Origin: a virus
Taxonomy: Duplodnaviria > Heunggongvirae > Uroviricota > Caudoviricetes
DNA length: 41,009 nt
Virus record (IMG/VR): IMGVR_UViG_3300024344_000001
Direction: 5' to 3' (one strand)
Below the pieces are notes generated by a model. It was not told the DNA's origin. It saw only the letters and a list, made by a program, of their open reading frames with translations, and searched no databases. Position 1 is the stretch's first letter. Every line of letters starts with the position of its first letter. Shown piece by piece: positions 11,658 to 25,483 of this stretch. Both the position numbers and the translations under genes were made by a program.

Positions 11658-12193
11658 TGAGTGATTTTATTCACGTACCAGAAGGAATGACAGAAGAAGA
11701 GGTACTAGAGGTAATGAACAAGGTGATCGACAAGATCGCCCCTAAGTGGACCTTTTTTGGGTTTACGGTAGATGACATAAAGCAGGAGTCTTATTTCATT
11801 CTCTCTGCGGCGTTACCTAAGTATAACGGCGATTACCCACTGGAGAACTTCCTGTCTGTTGTACTACCGCGTAAGTTGTATAACCTGAAGCGTGACAACC
11901 ACGCCCTTAACGACTTAAGCGATGATAAGAAGAAAGTATCGCGTCCTGCTCAGTTGGAAGATGATTTCAATATGACGTATCAGGACGGCGATGAATACGA
12001 GGCAATGGATTACAGCGAAATGGTAAACCTGATAAACCGTGAGTTGCCCGCTAATATGAGGCAGGACTATCTGAAGATGGCCCACCAGGTCTCCGTTCCA
12101 AAACCACGCCGTGAAGAGATTACGACTTACATTAAGATCATTCTCGAAGATCACGGTTATTACCACGAAGAGGCGACAAGTGAAAAGGGGTAG
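11657..12193 (+). CDS. RNA polymerase sigma factor-like protein
   Basis: Region-2-like DDIKQESYFILSAALPKYNGDYPLENFL...LYNLKR. Confidence 0.7.
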   Translation: MSDFIHVPEGMTEEEVLEVMNKVIDKIAPKWTFFGFTVDDIKQESYFILSAALPKYNGDYPLENFLSVVLPRKLYNLKRDNHALNDLSDDKKKVSRPAQLEDDFNMTYQDGDEYEAMDYSEMVNLINRELPANMRQDYLKMAHQVSVPKPRREEITTYIKIILEDHGYYHEEATSEKG

Positions 12194-12974
12194 AATTTCC
12201 AAGAAAGAGGAAGCGTTCATTGAGAGTAGTGTTGAACACCTAACACCAGAGGAAATAGGTAATGCACTAGACCGCGATCCAGAGAGTATCAAGGAATTCA
12301 TTAAGCGTAAGTTTGGGATGGGTTTATCTGAGGTAGAGGGTGTATCCTTCGATCTTAAGCAAAGGCCCTTCTGGAAGATACTGGAGTTACAGTTTACGGA
12401 ATCAGAACTGGAAATGTTTGACTATCATTATTCAAACCTGATTACCCAGTTCAAAGACGACGTTATTCACTCCGAAGAAATGCAGATTGTTGACATGATC
12501 AAGATGGACCTGTTAATGAACCGTGCATTGAGTAGCACTAAGTCTAACTTGAATCAGATTAACGCCCTTGAGGTATTAGTTAATGAAGAACGGGCTAAGG
12601 ACGCCGACCAGAGAGATAAGGAATATCTGTTTAACCTGGAGAGACAGGTAGCTTCTTTACGGGCAGGTAGTGAATCCCTTAATCGAGACTATCGCGACCT
12701 TCAGGAAAAGAAGAATAAGATTCTGAAAGAGATGAAGGCGACTCGTGCTGACCGTAGTAAGCAGTTGGAAAATAAGAATCAGACATTCAAGGGCTGGCTG
12801 ACTTGTCTTATCGAGAACCCAGCGGAGATTAGGAAGTACGGCCTTGAGATGGAAAAACGCCGTTTGGCTAAACAGAAAGAGTTGGAGAGGTTGTCGCAGT
12901 ACCATACTTATGAAGATGGTGTTGTTGATCAGCCGTTCTTAAACGCGGACACTTTAATTGACGAGGAGAAATAA
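12180..12974 (+). CDS. HTH plus coiled-coil protein (candidate small terminase)
   Basis: N-terminal LTPEEIGNALDRDPESIK HTH-like, long coiled coil, position in the packaging module. Confidence 0.45.
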   Translation: MKRGRISKKEEAFIESSVEHLTPEEIGNALDRDPESIKEFIKRKFGMGLSEVEGVSFDLKQRPFWKILELQFTESELEMFDYHYSNLITQFKDDVIHSEEMQIVDMIKMDLLMNRALSSTKSNLNQINALEVLVNEERAKDADQRDKEYLFNLERQVASLRAGSESLNRDYRDLQEKKNKILKEMKATRADRSKQLENKNQTFKGWLTCLIENPAEIRKYGLEMEKRRLAKQKELERLSQYHTYEDGVVDQPFLNADTLIDEEK

Positions 12975-12975
12975 C

Positions 12976-13590
12976 ATGGCGAAAGTAAGATTGTGGACAA
13001 TGGGGAACCTGGATCATAAGATCCTTCCCACAAAAGAGGGGGTTGACAAACTACGTAATATCTTAGCGGCTAATGTGGGACATGAAGACTTAAATGTCAT
13101 CTGGGGTCCAGAGTTAACGCTAACAGTAGATCCCGATGAGGATACGGACGTAAAAGACATCGTTAAGAGAATGGACGAGGATGGTAGCGTTACATACTAC
13201 AAGGTGAGTGAAAGAAATAAGAAGGTTGTATCTGGAACTGAAGATAGAGAGATTATCAATAGGGCTATCAATCTACCAGAGGTATTAGTAGATCCAGCAA
13301 CTGGTACGGAGTATAGGATTCAATCATGGGCCGCGAGTGCTAGTGTAGATGATTTTGTTCATGTGAATGCTACTTTACTTCCTTGCCCTAAAAAAGAACC
13401 CCTAGAGGACACCGTAGATATCTCTGAGTTGGAAGATAGCACATACACGGTTGTAACCCCAAAATCCGCCGCCTATGAAGACGGTTCAGGTGACTGTATA
13501 GTAAACGCCGCAAAACCCGGTACGGTAGTAGGCTTCGGTAAAACTCCGATGGGCGTTGTACTGAATAAGTGGGAGGGAACTAATGAATAA
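12976..13590 (+). CDS. protein with an N-terminal copy of a portal segment
   Basis: aa 5-47 match portal aa ~311-353 at 31/43 identity; GAGGAG SD. Confidence 0.75.
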   Translation: MAKVRLWTMGNLDHKILPTKEGVDKLRNILAANVGHEDLNVIWGPELTLTVDPDEDTDVKDIVKRMDEDGSVTYYKVSERNKKVVSGTEDREIINRAINLPEVLVDPATGTEYRIQSWAASASVDDFVHVNATLLPCPKKEPLEDTVDISELEDSTYTVVTPKSAAYEDGSGDCIVNAAKPGTVVGFGKTPMGVVLNKWEGTNE

Positions 13591-13851: not shown

Positions 13852-14217
13852 ATGGAAGAACAAGAAGTAACGCCGTACCAGAAACAGTACTTGGAGACGC
13901 TTCAGACTTTACCTCCAAGTGGAGGAATACCACTGTTTGTTTATAACGGTCGCCCCATATGGGGTGGTAGTCCAATGACCGGTATAGAAGTATGTGATCT
14001 CATTCAGCAGTTGAATGGTGATGAACCCATGAAGAATATTGGTCCCTCCACTGAACAAGTTACCATGATAGGAGAAAACACGGAGTGGATGTATATATGT
14101 AGAGAAGGTCAACCATACGCTATGCTCGGTTGCATGTGTACCCATTGTATGGGTAAAGAGTGTAATCCTAATGGTAATTGGACGTGGCTTGATAGAGAGG
14201 ATCGCCGTGATAAGTGA
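13852..14217 (+). CDS. hypothetical protein
   Basis: ORF track. Confidence 0.6.
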   Translation: MEEQEVTPYQKQYLETLQTLPPSGGIPLFVYNGRPIWGGSPMTGIEVCDLIQQLNGDEPMKNIGPSTEQVTMIGENTEWMYICREGQPYAMLGCMCTHCMGKECNPNGNWTWLDREDRRDK

Positions 14218-14905
14218 CAAATACCAACTAATATTCGTCCATAACCCAAAGTGTGCTGGCTCCAGTATTAAGAACGCCCTCCAAGGTCTCCCTGAGGCTG
14301 ACTGGCGTAAGAATGACTGGCACTACACTATCAACCAGTTATTCCGCACGGGTGATAAGATAGAGGATATTTTTGATTACAAGTCCTTTGGTTGTGTACG
14401 TAATCCATATGACAGACTTGTCTCTGCCTTCACATACAATATAGAGAGAGTCTTAATTTCGACTGACTACCATTGGGACGCATATCCCTTAGCTTACCAG
14501 TGTCTTAAAAAATACACTGACCAATACTTAACCGGCCTTGATGGTAGTTGGGGTGGGACAGATCTTATTAAGACCTTCCGTGCATTTGTGTTGTCAGAGG
14601 ACTTTGAAAAGTTAACCGGGAAAGGGTGGCCAATACACTTTAAATTGCAGTCTCACTTCTTTACGGAACGCGACCTTGACCTTTGTCTTAGATTTGAAGA
14701 TTTCATGGAACAGGACGGAGGCTTAGAGGCTTTAGAAGACTATACGGGCCAAAGCTTGAAAGTCCCCTACACAAACATGTCGGCACACCCAGATTATCAG
14801 GAGTTCTATGATATTCAATGTATGGACCGTGTAGCTAAGAAATACCATTCGGATTTTATTGAATTCGGATATAATATCCACATGTTAGGAGAGTCACATG
14901 CCTAA
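14207..14905 (+). CDS. sulfotransferase family 2 (HNK-1/CHST-like)
   Basis: 5'-PSB IFVHNPKCAGSSI, 3'-PB VRNPYDRLVSAF, H..Q..F and RFED motifs. Confidence 0.85.
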   Translation: MISDKYQLIFVHNPKCAGSSIKNALQGLPEADWRKNDWHYTINQLFRTGDKIEDIFDYKSFGCVRNPYDRLVSAFTYNIERVLISTDYHWDAYPLAYQCLKKYTDQYLTGLDGSWGGTDLIKTFRAFVLSEDFEKLTGKGWPIHFKLQSHFFTERDLDLCLRFEDFMEQDGGLEALEDYTGQSLKVPYTNMSAHPDYQEFYDIQCMDRVAKKYHSDFIEFGYNIHMLGESHA

Positions 14906-16025
14906 AGCAATCATTTTCGGCGTAACAGGACAGGACGGTAGCCACCTTGCAGATTTGTTAATCGAGAAAGGCTACGACGTGGTAGGAGTATCCAGACGGT
15001 GCTCAGTAGATAATACAGAAAGGATTAAGCATCTGGGTCGAATCGATAAATTCGATTTAATTCAGGGCGATATAACGGACGCTCATAGCGTTGGGCGTAT
15101 CTTTAAGGATCACGTTGATGTTGATGAAGTCTATAACCTTGCTGCCCAGTCTCATGTAGGGGTTTCGTTTAAGCAACCCGGATTAACTTGGGACATTACT
15201 GGTAAAGGGTGTTTGAACATTTTGCAGTGTATGGTTGACGAAGGGGTCAAAGGTAAGTTCTATCAGGCTAGTTCGAGTGAGATGTTCGGCTCCAACTATG
15301 ATACAAGGCCAGATTATCAAAATGAACGCCAGTACCTCAAGAAAGTTCGAAACAATGAACCACTACAACTAAAATACCAAGACGAAAATACAAAGTTCCT
15401 TCCACAATCGCCGTATGCCATAGCTAAGTGTGCTGCTCATTATATGACTAGCCTCTATAGGGATGCATACGGTATTCACGCCAGTTCTGGGATTTTATTC
15501 AACCATGAGGGTCCGAGACGTGGCGATAACTTTGTGACAAGGAAAATAACCAAGTGGATTGGAGAATATACCGCTTGGCGTAAGAAGAATTCTCAATATC
15601 CGATCCGAGGATGCAACCGTACTGACTCCATTATTGCTTACAAGTATAATAGTGATGATGTTAAGAGTACGTTTTCCAAGCTGCGTCTGGGTAATCTTGA
15701 AGCATTCCGAGACTGGGGGTACTCAGGAGATTATGTGGAAGCCATGTGGTTGATGTTACAGCAGGATAGGCCAGATGATTACGTCATTTGCACTGGTGAG
15801 ACTCATACCATTCGAGATTTCCTGGGCGTAGCGTTTGAAGTTGCGGGGATAGGTAGTTGGGAGAGTAATGTAATAATCGATCCAGAATTCTATAGACCAG
15901 CCGAGGTTGATTACCTTCGAGGGATAAATACAAAAGCAAGAGATAAGTTAGGATGGACACCTAGGCATTCGTTTACAGATCTGGTTAAACTCATGGTGGA
16001 ACATGATGTAAATGAAAATCTATAA
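14898..16025 (+). CDS. gmd: GDP-mannose 4,6-dehydratase
   Basis: GVTGQDGS, YNLAAQSHV..SF, YQASSSEMFG, SPYAIAK, GILFNHE, FVTRKIT, LGNL...RDWG, RPAEVD. Confidence 0.95.
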   Translation: MPKAIIFGVTGQDGSHLADLLIEKGYDVVGVSRRCSVDNTERIKHLGRIDKFDLIQGDITDAHSVGRIFKDHVDVDEVYNLAAQSHVGVSFKQPGLTWDITGKGCLNILQCMVDEGVKGKFYQASSSEMFGSNYDTRPDYQNERQYLKKVRNNEPLQLKYQDENTKFLPQSPYAIAKCAAHYMTSLYRDAYGIHASSGILFNHEGPRRGDNFVTRKITKWIGEYTAWRKKNSQYPIRGCNRTDSIIAYKYNSDDVKSTFSKLRLGNLEAFRDWGYSGDYVEAMWLMLQQDRPDDYVICTGETHTIRDFLGVAFEVAGIGSWESNVIIDPEFYRPAEVDYLRGINTKARDKLGWTPRHSFTDLVKLMVEHDVNENL

Positions 16026-16290
16026 GGTCTACATTGATATGATACTAGTTCTTGGGAGATTAAAGAAATTTTCTCTCGGGAGTTACAATTACACCAACCC
16101 TATCATATTTCAAACGGCGAGCGACCCAGATGATGCCTGTTTTCGGGCCTATACTGGGTTATCCGATCTCATAATGAGACAGCACGGTGGTGATCCATCG
16201 AAGTCAGTCAAGTTTACTAAGGACATTATGTATGATGTACGAGTAACTAAGATATCGTTAGCCAGCAACGAAAGTAAATTTGATGTCTAA
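16012..16290 (+). CDS. hypothetical protein
   Basis: ORF track; overlaps both neighbours. Confidence 0.65.
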   Translation: MKIYKVYIDMILVLGRLKKFSLGSYNYTNPIIFQTASDPDDACFRAYTGLSDLIMRQHGGDPSKSVKFTKDIMYDVRVTKISLASNESKFDV

Positions 16291-16558
16291 AAGAAACTAT
16301 GACGATCCGCTCTATGCAGAGTGGAGGAAAAGAGTGTTTACTAGGGATAAACGGAGATGCCAGATGCCTGGCTGTAAACGGAGAAAATCACTTAACGCTC
16401 ACCATATTCAAAGGTGGGCAGACCAACCATTTTTAAGATACGAACCTGATAATGGGATTACGCTATGCTGGGGTTGCCACAAGGAAGTGACTAACAACGA
16501 GCGAGCCTATGAGGGTCTATTTTTGGAGATCGCAATAAACAATGGCAAAAGCAACTAA
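16283..16558 (+). CDS. HNH endonuclease (packaging-associated type)
   Basis: WRKRVFTRD..RCQ..GC....LNAHHI......NGITLC..CH. Confidence 0.9.
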   Translation: MSKRNYDDPLYAEWRKRVFTRDKRRCQMPGCKRRKSLNAHHIQRWADQPFLRYEPDNGITLCWGCHKEVTNNERAYEGLFLEIAINNGKSN

Positions 16559-17060
16559 AGCCCCTGAATATACCATCATCAGAGATACCAGAGAACAACA
16601 AGGGTATCACTTCAAACCGTACAATCTATGTGTCGGTATGGAGGATCTGAAACTGGATACTGGTGATTATACCATCAAGGGACTAGAAGACAAGATCTGT
16701 GTTGAAAGAAAGGCGTCCGTTACTGAACTGGCCCTTAATCTTGGTCAAGACAAACACAGGTTTATGAACGAAATTCAGAGGATGAAACACTTCCCTCATC
16801 GTTATCTCGTACTTGAGTTTAGCATGGCGGATATATCTAAATTCCCTGAAGGGACCAAGGTGCGTAAGGATAGCCTACGTAAAGGGAGTAAGAACCCCCT
16901 AAAGATTACCGGTAAGTATATGCTGCGTTGTCTTATGGAGTTCGAGATTTTCGATGACATTAATGTTGTATTCTGTGGTGACAAGTACAACGGCTTCATG
17001 TACGTAAGTTCCCTCTTCAAGAGGGTTAACGAAAAGTACAGTATCGGGAGAGGACAATGA
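16542..17060 (+). CDS. ERCC4/XPF-domain nuclease
   Basis: IIRDTREQ, LDTGDY, VERK motifs. Confidence 0.85.
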   Translation: MAKATKAPEYTIIRDTREQQGYHFKPYNLCVGMEDLKLDTGDYTIKGLEDKICVERKASVTELALNLGQDKHRFMNEIQRMKHFPHRYLVLEFSMADISKFPEGTKVRKDSLRKGSKNPLKITGKYMLRCLMEFEIFDDINVVFCGDKYNGFMYVSSLFKRVNEKYSIGRGQ

Positions 17061-17701
17061 AACAACCTGGGATCATTCATGATCTACACGCGTATGGGTT
17101 AAATATAGAGGGTCGCGAGATCTTTCTTCACTCATACATCGAGAATACTGAGGAAGAACCTGGTATTGACTACAGATCGGCTGCGGTCTTTCTGAAGAAC
17201 ATTACCCTGTTAGACTCACTGACGGAGAAACCTATTACTGTCCATATGTTTACCATTGGTGGTATGTGGGAATCCGGTATGGCTATGTATGATGCTATTC
17301 GCAGTTGTAAGTCTTACGTAACAGTTTATGTTCACGGGCAGGCTTCCTCAATGAGTAGTATCGTATTACAGGCCGCAGACTTTAGGGTCATGATGCCCAA
17401 CTCGCACTATATGTGCCACTTCGGATCGACAGGCTTTGAGGGCCACTTCCTGAACTATCAAGCACTCTCAAAACAAGAGAGGTTGAATGGTAAGGTCATG
17501 ATCGATATTTACTCTGATAAGATGGTGAATTCACAGTTCTTCAATGATAAGCACCCCAGTGGGGACACCGTGAAGGCTCATAGTTTCATCAAAAGGAAGT
17601 TGAAAGACGGTGACTGGTATCTATCTCCAGAGGACGCCGTCTATTATGGATTTGCGGACTGTGTATGGGGAGATAGAAAATTCAAGACGGCTATGGTATG
17701 A
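17057..17701 (+). CDS. clpP: ClpP-like serine protease
   Basis: REIFL, TIGG....GMAMYDAI, GQASSMSSIVLQAAD, MPNSHYMCH, WYLSPEDAVYYGFAD. Confidence 0.85.
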   Translation: MKQPGIIHDLHAYGLNIEGREIFLHSYIENTEEEPGIDYRSAAVFLKNITLLDSLTEKPITVHMFTIGGMWESGMAMYDAIRSCKSYVTVYVHGQASSMSSIVLQAADFRVMMPNSHYMCHFGSTGFEGHFLNYQALSKQERLNGKVMIDIYSDKMVNSQFFNDKHPSGDTVKAHSFIKRKLKDGDWYLSPEDAVYYGFADCVWGDRKFKTAMV

Positions 17702-19707
17702 CATTAGAAACCACCCAACCAACCGATGAGCAACTAAGACAAATTAACGACGCATGGCTGGGGATAGATATTCCTGAGAGGGAAATCTTCAACCCCGCCG
17801 ATATGCTGAATCCCAGTGATGCTCAATTCCATCTTAAACTAACCTGGCTACTGACAAAGCCCGAATACTTTTCCTTTACCTGTAATGTAATCCTTGGCAT
17901 TAACATTCTACCTTCCCAGAGCCTGATGCTTGAGGAAATGTGGAATCGTAAGTTCCCAATGCTCATCGCGAGCCGTGGTTTTGGTAAGTCTTTCATCTTA
18001 TCAGTATATGCCATCCTGCGAGCATTGATTCTCCCTAAGAGGAAGGTAGTTATTGTAGGTGCCGCGTTCCGTCAGTCAAAAGTTCTATTTGACTACATGG
18101 AAACGCTGTGGAACAATTCGCCTATTCTACAGAGCCTGTGCGATAAGAACAGTGGTCCTCGCCGTAGTAATGACCAGCACGTACTAAGAATTAACGATTC
18201 TACTATTACCTGTCTACCTTTGGGTGACGGTAGTAAGATTCGTGGTCAACGTGCTAACGATATTATTGCGGACGAATTTGCGTCCATTCCTCGTGATATC
18301 TTTGAAACAGTTGTTGCTGGTTTCGGTGTTGTAACCGCTGACCCTATTGAGAATGTTCAGAGGCTTGCTGCTCTTAGGGCGGCTGCTGAGATGGGCATTG
18401 ATATGGAAGAAGACGAGAATGATATCTCCAGTAGTAAGGATAACCAGATTATCTTCTCTGGTACCGCCTACTACGACTTTAATCACTTCGCGGACTATTG
18501 GAAGAAGTGGTGTAAGATTATCAAGACTCGCGGTAACAAGAACCAGGTCCGAGAAATGTTTGGGGGCGATGATCCTCCAAAAGACTTTGACTGGGTGCAA
18601 TACTCTGTTATCCGTATTCCTTATGAGTTACTCCCTGAAGGCTTCATGGATGCCGCACAGGTAGCTCGTTCTAAGGCCACAGTACACGCCGGTATTTACA
18701 AAATGGAGTACGGGGCCGTATTCACTAGAGACTCTCAGGGCTTCTTTAAGCGAAGTCTGATTGAGGCTTGTGTAGCTAAAGATCCGAAAATCGAACCTCC
18801 TATCCTGGACTGGCAGGATAACCCTATTGTGTTCTCTGCGGGACTATTAGGTAGTCCAAAGAAAGAGTACATATTTGGAGTTGACCCCGCGTCTGAAGTG
18901 GATAATTTCTCCATTGTGGTTCTAGAGCTTAACCCGGATCACCGTCGCATTGTCTATAGCTGGACTATTACCCGTTCTGAACATAGGGCGAAAGTTAAGT
19001 TCGGTGAGACTAAGGAGACGGAATTCTACTCCTTCTGTGCAAGGAAGATCCGTGATCTAATGCGTAGATTCCCCTGCAAGCACATATCTATGGATGCTGG
19101 TGGTGGCGGTATCGCCGTAGAAGAAGCCTTACATGATAAAGACAAGATCATGGAGGGTGAGCTTCCTATCTGGCAGATTATCGAAGAGGACGTAGAGAAA
19201 GATACGGACGACTTCAAGGGTCTACATATTCTTGAGATGTGTCAGTTCTCCCAGTATGACTGGTTGCGTGATGCTAACCACGGTATGCGTAAGGACTTCG
19301 AAGATCAGATCCTAATCTTCCCGATGTTTGACTCTGTACTTATGGGTCTGGCTAATATTGAGGACGAGGTTAAGAACCGAACCTATGACACCCTGGAAGA
19401 GTGTGTTATGGAAATAGAGGAACTTAAGGACGAGTTAGCTATGATTGAGATTACTCAGACGCCGTCTGGTAGGGAAAGATGGGATACTCCAGAGGTGGTT
19501 GTTGCGGCAGGTAAGAAGGAACGTATTCGTAAGGACCGCTATTCCGCCCTAATGATGGCTAACAAAGCTGCGAGAGACCTGAATAAGTTGATTCCTTCCG
19601 TAGATGCCAACTATTATGGGGGTTTTGCTACCCTGGAAGAGATAAAAGATCCCACAGGTAAGCTTTTTGAGGGTCCAGACTGGTTTAATGTTGATGGGGT
19701 GTATTAG
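17698..19707 (+). CDS. terL: terminase large subunit
   Basis: Walker A ASRGFGKS, IRGQRA, Walker B IIADE, nuclease GVDPA and KDRYSA. Confidence 0.92.
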   Translation: MTLETTQPTDEQLRQINDAWLGIDIPEREIFNPADMLNPSDAQFHLKLTWLLTKPEYFSFTCNVILGINILPSQSLMLEEMWNRKFPMLIASRGFGKSFILSVYAILRALILPKRKVVIVGAAFRQSKVLFDYMETLWNNSPILQSLCDKNSGPRRSNDQHVLRINDSTITCLPLGDGSKIRGQRANDIIADEFASIPRDIFETVVAGFGVVTADPIENVQRLAALRAAAEMGIDMEEDENDISSSKDNQIIFSGTAYYDFNHFADYWKKWCKIIKTRGNKNQVREMFGGDDPPKDFDWVQYSVIRIPYELLPEGFMDAAQVARSKATVHAGIYKMEYGAVFTRDSQGFFKRSLIEACVAKDPKIEPPILDWQDNPIVFSAGLLGSPKKEYIFGVDPASEVDNFSIVVLELNPDHRRIVYSWTITRSEHRAKVKFGETKETEFYSFCARKIRDLMRRFPCKHISMDAGGGGIAVEEALHDKDKIMEGELPIWQIIEEDVEKDTDDFKGLHILEMCQFSQYDWLRDANHGMRKDFEDQILIFPMFDSVLMGLANIEDEVKNRTYDTLEECVMEIEELKDELAMIEITQTPSGRERWDTPEVVVAAGKKERIRKDRYSALMMANKAARDLNKLIPSVDANYYGGFATLEEIKDPTGKLFEGPDWFNVDGVY

Positions 19708-19772: not shown

Positions 19773-20345
19773 GTGGATTACTGTAGAAGATGCAAGAGTG
19801 ACGTAACTGAGGCGTATCAGAACAAGACCTATAAATACTGTGGTGGAGATCTCTGTAGACAATCCATCAAGGAGTATGGGTATGACAAGTATGCTAATAG
19901 CGACCTTTTCCTTTTAACATCGTTTGATGACTGTGTGGATGGGTATTGGGATGGCTTTAAGGATATTCAACACTCTGGTAAGGTACTTATTTCAGACATT
20001 CTGAATAGGTTTTCTAAACTACAGTATGTAACAAGTTTTACTCATGATAATAGAGATAAAATTGAATCTGATAAGGTTCTATATATCATCTCTGATTGTA
20101 ATGATATTATTCTCAAAGTTGGATTGACAACTAGTCCTACAAGAAACTTTCGTAGATATTCTTGTTATGAAGATCAACCTTTAAGGTATGATATTTTCAT
20201 AGTGAATTCATATGAAGAGCAAGAGTTATATGAAAAGAAGATAAGAAACTATTTGGAATACCTAGGTCACTTTTTACCGAAAGATGATTCGGAAAAAAGA
20301 CTTGGATACATCAATAATACACTAGTAAATTCCCAGGAGAGATAA
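19773..20345 (+). CDS. hypothetical protein with GIY-YIG/T5orf172-like C-terminus
   Basis: LYIIS...LKVGLT.SP.R..R.Y...E...E pattern; looks AT-rich; inserted between terL and portal. Confidence 0.45.
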   Translation: MDYCRRCKSDVTEAYQNKTYKYCGGDLCRQSIKEYGYDKYANSDLFLLTSFDDCVDGYWDGFKDIQHSGKVLISDILNRFSKLQYVTSFTHDNRDKIESDKVLYIISDCNDIILKVGLTTSPTRNFRRYSCYEDQPLRYDIFIVNSYEEQELYEKKIRNYLEYLGHFLPKDDSEKRLGYINNTLVNSQER

Positions 20346-22451
20346 ATGGCAGAACAACCTCAAAGAAAGCCTGTTGAGCCTTCATATATTACCTGGCAGG
20401 GACAAACCCCGTCAGAAAGCGATCTAACTAAGTACGGAGAATGTATAGGAGAATACGGAGGTAGAGCGAGAGCTAACCATCGCGACTTCATAGATATCGA
20501 AGAACATAGATCAGTACGTACAAGCTACACCAGAGACGACTGGAACTACTTTAGGTGGGACGAATCCGTTCCGTCCAGAAAGAAGGCGTTGATTAAAACC
20601 TGTATGGAAGCATACAAGAAGGTTGGTATTGTACACAACGTTATTGACCTTATGGGCGATTTCGGATCTCAAGGGATCAGTATCGTACATGAGGATAAGT
20701 CCGTAGAGAAATTCCTGAAAGAGTGGTTCAGACGTGTCGGAGGAAAAGAGCGATCAGAGCGATTTCTTAATCATCTGTATCGAACTGGTAATGTGCTTAT
20801 TTATACTAGTGATGCAAAGGTTACTCCACAGGTAGTGAAGTATATCAGGTCTCGTGCTAAGAAGGGCGACATCATAGTTAAGCCACCAGAAGCTAATAAA
20901 TCCAAGATTCCGTGGAGATACAACTTCTTGAATCCCCTTACGATTAACATCAAGAAGGGCGATTACAAGATGTTTGTGGGCCGTAATAAGTTTACGCAGA
21001 AGATTCCGTCTACTTATGTTGATACATTCAAGAACGGCGATCCTGAGCAGGCTATGCTTATCAGCACACTCCCACTTAGTATGCAGCAGCAGATTAGGAA
21101 TGGCGACCGTGAAATTGACCTAGATACCTCTAAGTTAAGTGTTTTCCACTACAAGAAGGATGACTGGGAAGACTGGGCCGATCCTATGATTGAGTCCATC
21201 CTGGATGATATCTTGATGCTTGAGAAGATGCGTTTAGCGGACCTATCCGCACTTGATGGGGCTATCTCAAATATCCGATTATGGACCCTTGGTGACTTTG
21301 AACACAAGATTCTGCCTACTAAAGAGGGTGTGCAGAAACTCCGTAATATCCTTGCATCTAATGTTGGGGGCGGTGTTCTGGACCTTGTATGGGGACCAGA
21401 GCTTAAGTTCGAAGAATCAAACTCCCAAGTATACAAATTCCTTGGATCTGAGAAGTATAGTTCTGTACTTAATAGTATTTACGCTGGCCTTGGTGTGCCT
21501 CCTACACTAACCGGTATGGCCGGTAATGGCGGTGGATTTACTAACAACTTTATTTCTCTTAAGACTCTTGTAGAGAGATTACAGTACGGTAGAGATAGAT
21601 TAACTACATTCTGGAATAATGAACTTGAGAAAGTTCGTCGTGCTATGGGTTTTCGTAAGCCTGCATATATCACATTTGACCAGATGAACCTATCTGACGA
21701 CGCATCAGAAAAAGCACTTCTAATAGAACTTCTAGATAGAAATGTAGTTTCTGAGGAAACTGTACGTGAGAGATTCAAGGAAGTTTCTAAGGTTGAGCAG
21801 GTTAGAATCCAGCGTGAAGAGAAAATGCGTGATTCTGAGAAAATGCCACCAAAAGCTGGTCCTTTCCATCCACCAAGTCAGCTTGAAGATGAGTTGGAGA
21901 AGATGGATAAGCAGTTAGATCATGATTCTGAGGAACATGATAAGGACATTGAGGTTAAGAAGATCGATATCAAGAATCGTCCTAAGCCTACAACTGGTCC
22001 TGGTGGTGGTCCCGCTAAGAAGCCTGCTAAAAAGAATGGGCGTCCGTCCAATAAGAAAGATCAGGGTCCACGTAAAAAGAGAACGGAGAAGCCTCGCAGT
22101 AAGCCTGGGGTAGCTTCTACGATCTACTATGCGTTCGAGGCGTATGATAAAATCTCCAAAGCGGTGGGTTCTGCTTACATGGCATACTCAAACAAGAAGG
22201 ATATGCGTAAGCTTACCAAGGCTCAGATTAGGGAATTAGAGGATCTTAAACTAGATGTTCTAACCGACCTAGACATAAGCGGTGATGTGTCTACAGAAGA
22301 CATTAAGGCTAGCTTAATCTCTGGTAAAAAGACCCCTAGTAGTATTATTGAGAGATTGGAAGTAGAGGAAATCAACCTGGATCAGATGACCGCAGCAGAC
22401 TATAAAAAGGGTGTTGTTGCTATTGTACTAGAAATGCAGTACATGGACTGA
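20346..22451 (+). CDS. portal protein
   Basis: Position after terL, size, GIVHNVIDLMGDF and IYAGLGVPPTL portal-like segments. Confidence 0.85.
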   Translation: MAEQPQRKPVEPSYITWQGQTPSESDLTKYGECIGEYGGRARANHRDFIDIEEHRSVRTSYTRDDWNYFRWDESVPSRKKALIKTCMEAYKKVGIVHNVIDLMGDFGSQGISIVHEDKSVEKFLKEWFRRVGGKERSERFLNHLYRTGNVLIYTSDAKVTPQVVKYIRSRAKKGDIIVKPPEANKSKIPWRYNFLNPLTINIKKGDYKMFVGRNKFTQKIPSTYVDTFKNGDPEQAMLISTLPLSMQQQIRNGDREIDLDTSKLSVFHYKKDDWEDWADPMIESILDDILMLEKMRLADLSALDGAISNIRLWTLGDFEHKILPTKEGVQKLRNILASNVGGGVLDLVWGPELKFEESNSQVYKFLGSEKYSSVLNSIYAGLGVPPTLTGMAGNGGGFTNNFISLKTLVERLQYGRDRLTTFWNNELEKVRRAMGFRKPAYITFDQMNLSDDASEKALLIELLDRNVVSEETVRERFKEVSKVEQVRIQREEKMRDSEKMPPKAGPFHPPSQLEDELEKMDKQLDHDSEEHDKDIEVKKIDIKNRPKPTTGPGGGPAKKPAKKNGRPSNKKDQGPRKKRTEKPRSKPGVASTIYYAFEAYDKISKAVGSAYMAYSNKKDMRKLTKAQIRELEDLKLDVLTDLDISGDVSTEDIKASLISGKKTPSSIIERLEVEEINLDQMTAADYKKGVVAIVLEMQYMD

Positions 22452-22512: not shown

Positions 22513-23934
22513 ATGCAAGAAATCAAGATTTACCAAAGAGAAATCGTAGACGGTATTGCTGAGGCTGTTAGGTCTCAAGCATCTATCGCCTACTGTGCTC
22601 CAGCCGCTCTAGTAGAGGTTGATGAGAAAGAATCTTTGGTCGATAAGATTATCGCAGAGAATAAGGATCAGATGGATCTATATTATTTAGAGTCTATTCT
22701 TGTATCCACAAACTGGAATGCCAACGATGATGTATTTCTAGCAGGGCCTACATGGGCCGCTAGACATACTCCAGAAGACAAGCCTTTCAACTTTATGCAC
22801 GATGAAGATGATATCATCGGCCACATGACTGGTAGCTACATAGTTGATCGCAATGGAAACAGAGTTGAGGCCGACTCTGACAGCTCACACCCGGATGACT
22901 TCGATATAGTCACTCGGGTTGTTCTATATAAGAGTTGGGCCAATCCAGAAAACGCGGAAAGAATGGTACAGATTATTGCTGATCTCGAAGGAGATGAGGA
23001 AAAATGGTTTGTGTCAATGGAGTGTTTGTTTGCTGGTTTTGATTATGCGGTTATGGATAAGTCCGATAACCGATCTATCATTGCTAGGAATGAAGAGTCC
23101 GCTTTCTTAACTCGTCACCTTAAGTCTTATGGTGGCACAGGTGAGTACGATGGATTTAGAATTGGTCGTGCCCTGAAAAATATCGCCTTTTCCGGTCAAG
23201 GGTTGGTTAACAATCCCGCCAATAAAGGTTCCCGTATTTTAAGAAAAAATGCAAGTGTTGCATTTACTAGTAATTCTAACATTTCTATCGCGGAGAAAAC
23301 CATGAGTGACACCGTAACTAAAGAACAGTATGATGTTCTAAAGGTAGAGCTTACTGAAGCCAAGGATTCCCTAAAGGATGTTCAGGCTAAAATGGAAGCT
23401 GCAAAGGCAAAAGAAATTGCCGATCAGATCACTGCTCACGAAGCAGAGATTGCTGATAAAGATTCTACCATCGCTGACCTGACTGAAAAGGTTTCTACTC
23501 TAGAAACTGAAGCAACTGAAGCTAAGGATGCAGTTAAGACTGCTGAAGACGCTCTTGCTAAGTCTAAGGAAGAGGTGGAAGAAATGAAGAAGAAAGAAAA
23601 AGAAGAGAAGCGTAAGGCCGCTCTTGTAGAGGCTGGTGTTGAAGCCGATAAGGCTTCAGAGACCGTTTCTTCTCTTGATGCTCTCGATGATGACGCATTT
23701 GCGAGTATTGTTGAGCTATATGCAAGTAAGAAAGCAGAAGCATCTTCTGAAGAAGATGGGGATGCTGACGATACTAGCGACGATGATGATGCTGCGGCAG
23801 CAGACGCTCTAGAAGACACTGACACCGAAGAAGGTGCCCTAGCGGGTGACGACGGCGATGATGGTGACGAAACTAGAAAAGCTGTAGCTGAGTTCATCTT
23901 TGATGCTATGAATATCAAGACTGACTCTGAATAA
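22513..23934 (+). CDS. prohead protease / scaffolding fusion
   Basis: N-terminal NANDDVF, KPFNFMH, IIGH, VSMEC, FSGQGLVNNPA; C-terminal acidic coiled coil. Confidence 0.8.
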   Translation: MQEIKIYQREIVDGIAEAVRSQASIAYCAPAALVEVDEKESLVDKIIAENKDQMDLYYLESILVSTNWNANDDVFLAGPTWAARHTPEDKPFNFMHDEDDIIGHMTGSYIVDRNGNRVEADSDSSHPDDFDIVTRVVLYKSWANPENAERMVQIIADLEGDEEKWFVSMECLFAGFDYAVMDKSDNRSIIARNEESAFLTRHLKSYGGTGEYDGFRIGRALKNIAFSGQGLVNNPANKGSRILRKNASVAFTSNSNISIAEKTMSDTVTKEQYDVLKVELTEAKDSLKDVQAKMEAAKAKEIADQITAHEAEIADKDSTIADLTEKVSTLETEATEAKDAVKTAEDALAKSKEEVEEMKKKEKEEKRKAALVEAGVEADKASETVSSLDALDDDAFASIVELYASKKAEASSEEDGDADDTSDDDDAAAADALEDTDTEEGALAGDDGDDGDETRKAVAEFIFDAMNIKTDSE

Positions 23935-24478: not shown

Positions 24479-25483
24479 ATGGCTAAAAGACCGAGCAAAG
24501 CAGTTCTTGAATTGCTACAAAGAACCGGTGACGGCGATCCTCAGAAGGCTCTAGCCGCACAGACCGAGTTTGCTAAGGCTCTAGAGCTACCTCTTCGCAA
24601 AGGTGTTCTAACCGGAGATATTCTTGGTAATATTTTCGAAACCGTTGAGGTTGGTCCTCACGGTAATACTGTTGAGTACCCAGTTGACCTTCTTGCCCCA
24701 GGCACCGAAGGTGAGCACCGTGCTTACACTAATCCAGGCCACGGCTACATTCCTCAGCGTTCAGTTGAGAGTGACTTCGTGACCATTCCTACCTTCGGTA
24801 TTGCAGCATCCATTGACTGGTTGCTACGTTATGCCCGCGATGCACAGTGGAACGTTGTTGCTCGTGCTATGCAGGTTATGGAACAGGGTTTCACCCAGAA
24901 CGTTAACGACAATGGTTGGCACACCATTTTGGCTGCTGCTGTTGACCGTAACATTCTTGTATACGATGGTGACGCTACCGCTGGTCAGTTCACTAAGAGA
25001 CTTATCTCTCTTATGCAGACTGTAATGCGTAGAAATGCTGGTGGTAACACTGGCTCCGCAGGTCGTGGTCGTTTGACCACTCTGTATGTTTCACCAGAAG
25101 CACTTGAAGACATCCGTAACTGGGGTCTTGATCAGGTTGACGATGTAACTCGTAGAGAGATTTACAACGCCCCTGAAAATGGTGCTCCTATTACCCGCAT
25201 CTTTGGTGTGGATCTTGTAGACCTTGACGAACTTGGTGTAAGCCAGGTTTATCAGACTTACTTCACTGACGCTCTATCTGGTGCTCTACAGGCATCTGAC
25301 ACTGAGCTTGTAGTTGGTCTTGATCAGTCTGCAAATGACTCCTTCATCATGCCGGTTAAGCAGACTCTGGAAATCTTCCCAGATCCAGCACTGCACCGTC
25401 AGCAGAGAGAAGGTTTCTATGGTTGGGCGGAAATGGGATTCGCTGCTCTGGACAACAGACGTGTAATTCTAGGCTCCTTCTAA
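24479..25483 (+). CDS. major capsid protein (HK97 fold)
   Basis: 334 aa, canonical position, biased codon use, followed by a terminator. Confidence 0.85.
   Translation: MAKRPSKAVLELLQRTGDGDPQKALAAQTEFAKALELPLRKGVLTGDILGNIFETVEVGPHGNTVEYPVDLLAPGTEGEHRAYTNPGHGYIPQRSVESDFVTIPTFGIAASIDWLLRYARDAQWNVVARAMQVMEQGFTQNVNDNGWHTILAAAVDRNILVYDGDATAGQFTKRLISLMQTVMRRNAGGNTGSAGRGRLTTLYVSPEALEDIRNWGLDQVDDVTRREIYNAPENGAPITRIFGVDLVDLDELGVSQVYQTYFTDALSGALQASDTELVVGLDQSANDSFIMPVKQTLEIFPDPALHRQQREGFYGWAEMGFAALDNRRVILGSF

Follow-up and report, generated by a model that had tools for sequence, protein, structure and literature searches.

A stand-alone gene for a predicted portal clip domain in an uncultured tailed phage, and its possible role as a decoy

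A clip gene among the packaging genes

The window, a 41,009-nt stretch of tailed-phage DNA (IMG/VR record IMGVR_UViG_3300024344_000001), carries a 204-aa ORF (12976..13590, + strand) that was recognised as a stand-alone clip protein by BLASTP against the portal ORF of the same phage and by its structure model. The ORF starts 1 nt past the stop of a 287-aa ORF (12111..12974, +) and its end overlaps the next start, an arrangement that reads as in a tight operon. A Shine-Dalgarno-like GAGGAG (12963..12968, +) lies 7 nt 5' of the ATG, within the final codons of the 287-aa ORF, and we infer from the sequence that the two ORFs are translationally coupled. A perfect TTGACA-17-TATAAT at 10383-10355 (- strand) points away from the packaging cluster; promoter and terminator counts were those of shuffled sequence.

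The surrounding genes are those of a conserved head cluster, which comprises a sigma-like gene, the 287-aa gene, GDP-mannose 4,6-dehydratase (GMD), HNH, an ERCC4 nuclease, often ClpP, the large terminase (TerL) and the portal. The 287-aa gene, present in 87 loci, has a helix-turn-helix-like start and a coiled coil, and matches only phrog_323, weakly; from its position we would guess at a candidate small terminase subunit. Between the clip gene and TerL (14171-17701) the window encodes a sulfotransferase, GMD (14898..16025, +), HNH, an ERCC4 nuclease and a ClpP-like protease, with GMD conserved in this cluster in 97 loci. TerL itself (17698..19707, +; Terminase_6N, E 2.5e-8; phrog_2, E 6.5e-23) is a candidate partner of the clip protein; in locus L001 (5366-8563) it reaches 1065 aa, its ATPase region being interrupted by a long insert that is likely an intein. 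A 190-aa gene without family match separates TerL from the portal in the window (19773-20345); it was absent from the first 222 loci, present in one later locus, and is possibly a mobile insert. After the cement gene, a 334-aa gene (24479-25483), conserved in relatives (41-63%) and lacking a Pfam or PHROG match, is by position only the putative major capsid protein.

The 701-aa ORF at 20346..22451 (+) had no Pfam or PHROG match, so its label as the portal needed testing. Its model, built from 77 sequences (pLDDT 78.9), gave 141 Foldseek matches at E<=0.001; all of the matches listed were portals, the lambda portal at E 9.8e-7. A VIA comparison with the Chi portal returned Z 20.3 (rmsd 4.7, 321 aligned), and the portal alignment had no sequence match among solved structures. 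The ORF sits after the large terminase in the head gene cluster, an order kept in relatives. Together, the two structural comparisons and this site bear out the assignment made in the original prediction: on its modelled structure, the ORF is the portal protein.

The clip of a portal is defined by its place between the stem helices (PMC4493910). In the portal model, the successive elements are helix 281-306, strand 310-314, helix 326-337, strand 345-349 and helix 369-382, and the segment shared with the 204-aa ORF is the strand-helix-strand unit between helices 281-306 and 369-382. The model and the structure matches thus place the portal clip domain at aa ~307-360 (21264..21425, +). When the model of the 204-aa protein was compared with 48,161 chains, the top four were all portals, aligned on aa 1-58 only: RcGTA 219-279 (Z 5.5, rmsd 3.5, 58 aligned), Mycofy1, Mu and Milano; the P23-45 portal (240-295) ranked seventh. 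These Z values are modest taken alone, yet consistent with the sequence evidence. Portal clip domains (T4 gp20 279-358; RcGTA 6TBA 219-279; P23-45 6QJT 240-295; SPbeta YonE 270-325) consist of three strands and a helix, as does the copy, and the clip of the phage's own portal is directly homologous to it in sequence. Modelling therefore confirmed the earlier identification of the shared segment as the clip, and aa 1-52 of the 204-aa ORF as a predicted clip domain of three strands and one helix. Unlike portal clips, the copy has its own start codon and non-portal tails, and it lacks stem, wing and crown, with no match to portal N- or C-part profiles.

BLASTP, the model and the alignment place the clip copy at aa 1-52 (12976..13131, +), in the order strand, tip loop, helix, strand, strand. 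Its tip and helix (K15-L30; 13018..13065, +) are identical to K321-L336 of the phage's own portal at 15 of 16 residues; this is the part that tracks the own portal across phages. An acidic beta-hairpin tail follows at aa 60-77 (13153..13206, +) and resembles the tails of some other stand-alone clips (P0002, 48% over aa 1-84; L206, another member with a similar tail). The second module, aa 77-173 (13204..13494, +), is unrelated to the clip and is 43% identical to a single orphan protein, P0003. Structure comparison of the model assigned no fold to aa 77-204, and neither half of the protein had a usable match in ESM Atlas or BFVD; the pLDDT is ~85 for aa 1-50 and <50 for aa 141-204.

BLASTP aligned aa 1-49 with portal aa 307-355 (31/49 identical, 0 gaps, E 4e-20), and the gapless 31/43 identity first noticed over aa 5-47 is correct; outside aa 1-49 the two ORFs shared no significant BLASTP segment. 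Over aa 4-47 the copy and its own portal agree at 31 of 44 residues (all inside 5-47) but at only 86 of 132 nt. Nei-Gojobori estimates for this stretch were pS 0.90 and pN 0.18, with silent sites saturated; where the residues are identical, 12 of the 14 fourfold sites carry different bases. This marks the copy as old and as kept by protein-level selection, in agreement with the inference first drawn from its synonymous codon differences; the selection is purifying. The clip gene was found without differences in contigs of two public subsurface runs (X1, possibly the window's own source, and X2), and is therefore no assembly artefact.

A patchily distributed family of stand-alone clips

Word-index searches matched only the ORF itself and gave the impression of a singleton, which an exhaustive phmmer search over 1.84 billion representatives overturned with 257 matches. 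The 150 matches listed include 100 stand-alone clips (the query's record among them), 47 portals or portal pieces and 3 proteins without a clip. A private duplication is thereby rejected: the gene is a member of a large family. The 100 stand-alone clips have a median length of 88 aa; 69 start within 6 residues of the clip, 13 carry a twin-arginine-like leader (by a loose pattern), and one, P0066, is a tandem of two clips. Searching with a profile built from 46 members gave 227 proteins of 34-217 aa; of the 120 listed, 73 were new, none of these a portal piece, and their sources annotate them as hypothetical. Scans of 96 members against Pfam, PHROG and NCBIfam yielded no family that matched more than one member at E<=0.01. 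A stand-alone clip pattern had no matches in GTDB genomes, and a second pattern had 18 matches in IMG/VR, 16 of them new and all portals. A literature search, which did not cover subscription journals, found no publication on stand-alone clip genes.

Residues W313, G316, P324 and W349 (portal numbering) are nearly invariant in stand-alone clips and portals alike. The N339-G343 loop, conserved in portals, is lost in the copies: N-x-G-G occurs in 1/100 stand-alone clips versus 38/47 portals. All three strands are retained in the stand-alone clips, the last of them diverged. On the question of a single origin for the family, trees on 37-50 columns implied 1, 3 or 8 changes according to the columns kept: with the loop columns the stand-alone clips fell on one side of a branch (SH-aLRT 96), and without the loop or the loop and tail columns there were 3 and 8 changes with AU p 0.30 and 0.44, on a short alignment whose outcome is column-dependent. 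On sequence comparison, the family derives from an unnamed portal group and is homologous to a known domain, but falls within no described family.

Some local observations accompany these searches. A similar unnamed gene precedes the stand-alone clip in two contigs that are not related to each other, immediately in L216 and by a few hundred bases in L205. Two of 136 homologues of the gene after the portal (window 22513-23934) bear a clip-helix-like insert in a variable N-terminal loop (L243:2740-4347 and L251:8954-10510; 19.4 and 18.1 bits, next 6.1), which may be chance; likeness of the clip to the N-terminus of that gene at family level was rejected (hhalign probability 0.4%).

The clip gene is accessory and patchily distributed. 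None of 67 portal-picked loci showing both the 287-aa gene and the portal has a copy, and among 13 records at least 90% complete, 11 have the portal only and two a copy (one picked for its copy, the other degenerate). In L001, a sister of a copy-bearing phage, the slot is empty and GMD directly follows the 287-aa gene. A copy-aimed pattern found copies at 15 of 22 metagenome loci (5 were portals, 2 neither); few IMG/VR contigs had one. Of 78 new loci ordered by similarity to one stand-alone member, 2 had a copy. The original proposal asked for retention of the duplicate in relatives; relatives do carry such copies, but most, including all 67 portal-picked loci, are without one, an absence that argues against a core packaging role. 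The phage group is uncultured, with near-complete records of 131-206 kb. INPHARED contained no close cultured phage (two weak matches, the best at 21.6%), and MAG bins with related portals span many phyla.

Most copies with visible context nevertheless sit in the packaging cluster, which houses them in nine further lineages (L181/L183, L195, L206, L207, L209, L212, L222, L267 and L283). In L181 (3222-4619) and L183 (8785-10182) the clip copy is fused in frame to the N-terminus of the GMD; compared with each other, these two copies gave pS 0.225 and pN 0.041. Eight loci, seven of them short contigs, place the copy among other genes. The neighbours of these out-of-cluster copies are an RNA ligase (adjoining the copy in L220), a glycosyltransferase, a methyltransferase and a GMP reductase. 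The degenerate case, L239:1303-1611 (-), encodes 102 aa with a twin-arginine-like leader and a C-terminal clip more than 60 kb from the portal; a GMP reductase/IMPDH gene adjoins it.

Such a distribution might suit a neutral relic left after parts of the portal gene were duplicated time and again, as would the decay of the L239 copy and the far C-terminal tail of the 204-aa ORF, where 4 of 7 changes were nonsynonymous in one low-depth contig. We regard this as very improbable: pN lies far below pS, which largely refutes the relic reading, and the domain boundaries are clean, the gene has its own start and ribosome site, and 100 members keep invariant core residues.

Matching of copies to their own portals

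Within a 22-residue core, the copy of the window agrees with its own portal at 20/22 positions; the runner-up among 188 portal clips agrees at 18, and no other stand-alone clip at more than 16. Tracking was assessed in five phages with both genes, whose portals are 37-59% identical to each other, by ranking 135 portals; L183 (of the L181 lineage) and L239 were excluded from the ranking matrix. By the 16 tip and helix residues (K321-L336), the own portal ranked 1st for L181, L267 and L283, 2nd for the window and 20th for L195. The observed sum was reached by 2/120 permutations for tip and helix versus 16/120 for the first strand, and 27 of 37 fourfold sites differ between copies and own portals. 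The region was picked from the window, with L267 and L283 found afterwards, and the window and L181 are related. The expectation that copies track their own portal thus held for tip and helix, which rank it 1st or 2nd in four of the five phages.

Over the whole clip the L195 copy proved not to match its own portal (102nd of 189; ~94th of 145), and the degenerate L239 copy placed its own ~23rd of 145. The sequence data fit both co-evolution and a repeated origin of the copy from the portal of each lineage, and in either case selection has kept the match.

In another reading, the copy would pair with its own unassembled portal, completing the three-stranded sheet shared by neighbouring clips, and so act as an assembly chaperone or shield the monomer surface read by the defence protein Avs4. 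We consider this improbable. Tracking of the own portal is weaker in the strands than in tip and helix (16/120 versus 2/120 permutations, in a test of low power because the first strand shows little variation). The last strand, moreover, has diverged, and one would expect a subunit lacking the stem to poison the ring as it assembles.

About equally doubtful is recruitment of the clip fold for an unrelated task, as a scaffold, a targeting tag for fused domains or a membrane-tethered binder. The varied tails, the enzyme fusion and the twin-arginine-like leaders in 13/100 members would all suit such a role, but it would not lead one to expect exposed residues that match the own portal lineage by lineage despite saturated silent sites. 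Instead, the copy appears to stand in for the clip toward some partner.

Partners of the clip surface and the decoy reading

The clip receives the packaging motor and later the adaptor (PMC7617512, PMC12407722), the tails of which are reported to bind in the clefts that separate neighbouring clips (PMC12407722). For T4, residues 291-296 of the tip are described as required for packaging, and a free 24-residue gp20 peptide (288-311) binds the terminase gp17 and inhibits packaging (PMC4493910). By a positional estimate, taken as the offset from the clip start and not from an alignment, this peptide falls on the matched 20/22 core. Like the copy, it is a free piece of the clip tip; it is, however, a synthetic laboratory piece, whereas the copy is a natural gene for a putative binder.

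Bacterial sensors also read this surface. Of SPbeta it is reported that SpbK docks on the clip helix of the portal YonE, that mutation of the helix weakens binding, and that SpbK activation requires clustering on the portal dodecamer (PMC12847820, PMC11984713). Avs4 is described as binding stem, clip and wing of the portal monomer (PMC12847820), and Avs11 as a further portal sensor, with Avs proteins enveloping the cores of their targets (10.64898/2026.01.04.697583). The original prediction had named Avs4 as the portal-sensing defence. That part stands insofar as Avs4 does bind the clip; since it also binds stem and wing, a decoy has its nearer precedent in SpbK, which contacts the clip helix. 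A role in targeting RelA and SpoT was rejected, the account of the T7 portal's action on them giving the clip as dispensable (PMC13483052).

On the phage side, the published descriptions of SpbK, YonE and the phage inhibitor Nip establish the clip helix as a sensor docking site and indicate that phages counter portal-sensing defence. As described, however, Nip binds the TIR domain and is not presented as a clip copy, and no SpbK relative is linked to the window phage. T7 Ocr (PMC12409349), like the proposed decoy, mimics a surface read by defence; it is described as a DNA mimic of unrelated fold, while the copy is a domain cut from, and homologous to, a structural protein of the same phage. 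By analogy, the copy's mode may be like that of known mimic or decoy proteins.

One use of this surface would be in the phage's own packaging or neck assembly, with the copy binding TerL or the head-tail adaptor in place of the portal; it might hold TerL until proheads are ready, or soak up the terminase of co-infecting relatives or satellites. The T4 peptide that binds gp17 and corresponds in position to the matched core, the clustering of the copy with the 287-aa gene, GMD and TerL in nine further lineages, the tracking of the own portal by tip and helix, and the reported binding of adaptor tails between clips (PMC12407722) all agree with such a modulator. Most relatives, however, package without a copy and some copies lie outside the packaging cluster; TerL and adaptor, as described, bind a ring of several clips, and a free clip should inhibit the phage's own motor. 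We judge modulation of packaging somewhat unlikely, though it comes close to the decoy, because the same surface binds terminase and the gene lies mostly in the packaging cluster.

Our preferred, tentative reading, to which we would give a probability of about 0.4 by analogy with these precedents, is that the copy is a soluble decoy for host immunity that reads the clip. The free clip would occupy defence proteins that read the portal clip without offering the 12-fold ring that they need to fire. It would be expressed together with the portal from the same gene cluster, bind an SpbK-type sensor through the clip helix or partly compete for Avs4-type sensors, and its low oligomeric state would prevent their activation. 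We favour the decoy because the gene is dispensable in most relatives, moves between places and tolerates fusions, an accessory pattern typical of arms-race genes; because SpbK reads this very helix and depends on a ring, which a clip on its own might fail to provide; and because a terminase-binding copy would inhibit the phage's own motor, a cost suggested by the inhibition of packaging by the free T4 clip peptide (PMC4493910).

Several observations weigh against the decoy. Matching to the own portal separates it poorly from a packaging modulator, since the tracked surface is, by position, the T4 terminase-binding tip; matching of this lineage-specific kind is explained no less well by co-evolution with a partner that the phage itself encodes. 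Avs sensors wrap around the core of their target, so an isolated clip may be a poor ligand for them. If the copy formed rings, it could trigger an SpbK-type sensor; the three strands are kept, and P0066 has its clips in tandem. Where context is known, the copies mostly belong to the packaging cluster, those of L195 and (degenerate) L239 track their own portals poorly, the MAG bins of related portals, coming from many phyla, pinpoint no host or sensor, and the twin-arginine-like leader of 13/100 members is unexplained by the model.

At the clip, the portal makes contact with the packaging motor, with the neck and with no fewer than two types of bacterial sensor. A clip that occurs in nature as a separate protein under selection would represent either counter-defence of a new type, in which an epitope taken from a virion protein serves as the decoy, or a packaging regulator of natural origin; a literature search found neither in print. 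The family's matched pairs of copy and own portal allow each idea to be tested directly, and soluble clips could serve as convenient probes of the contacts that the portal makes with terminase and sensors. It may be, though we put this at somewhat less than even odds, that phages have time and again cut the tip seen by immunity out of an essential virion protein and keep it as a small gene matched to the original, a general self-mimic counter-defence that blinds portal sensors. If that is true, self-mimic clips would be a sequence record of the portal surface under immune pressure.
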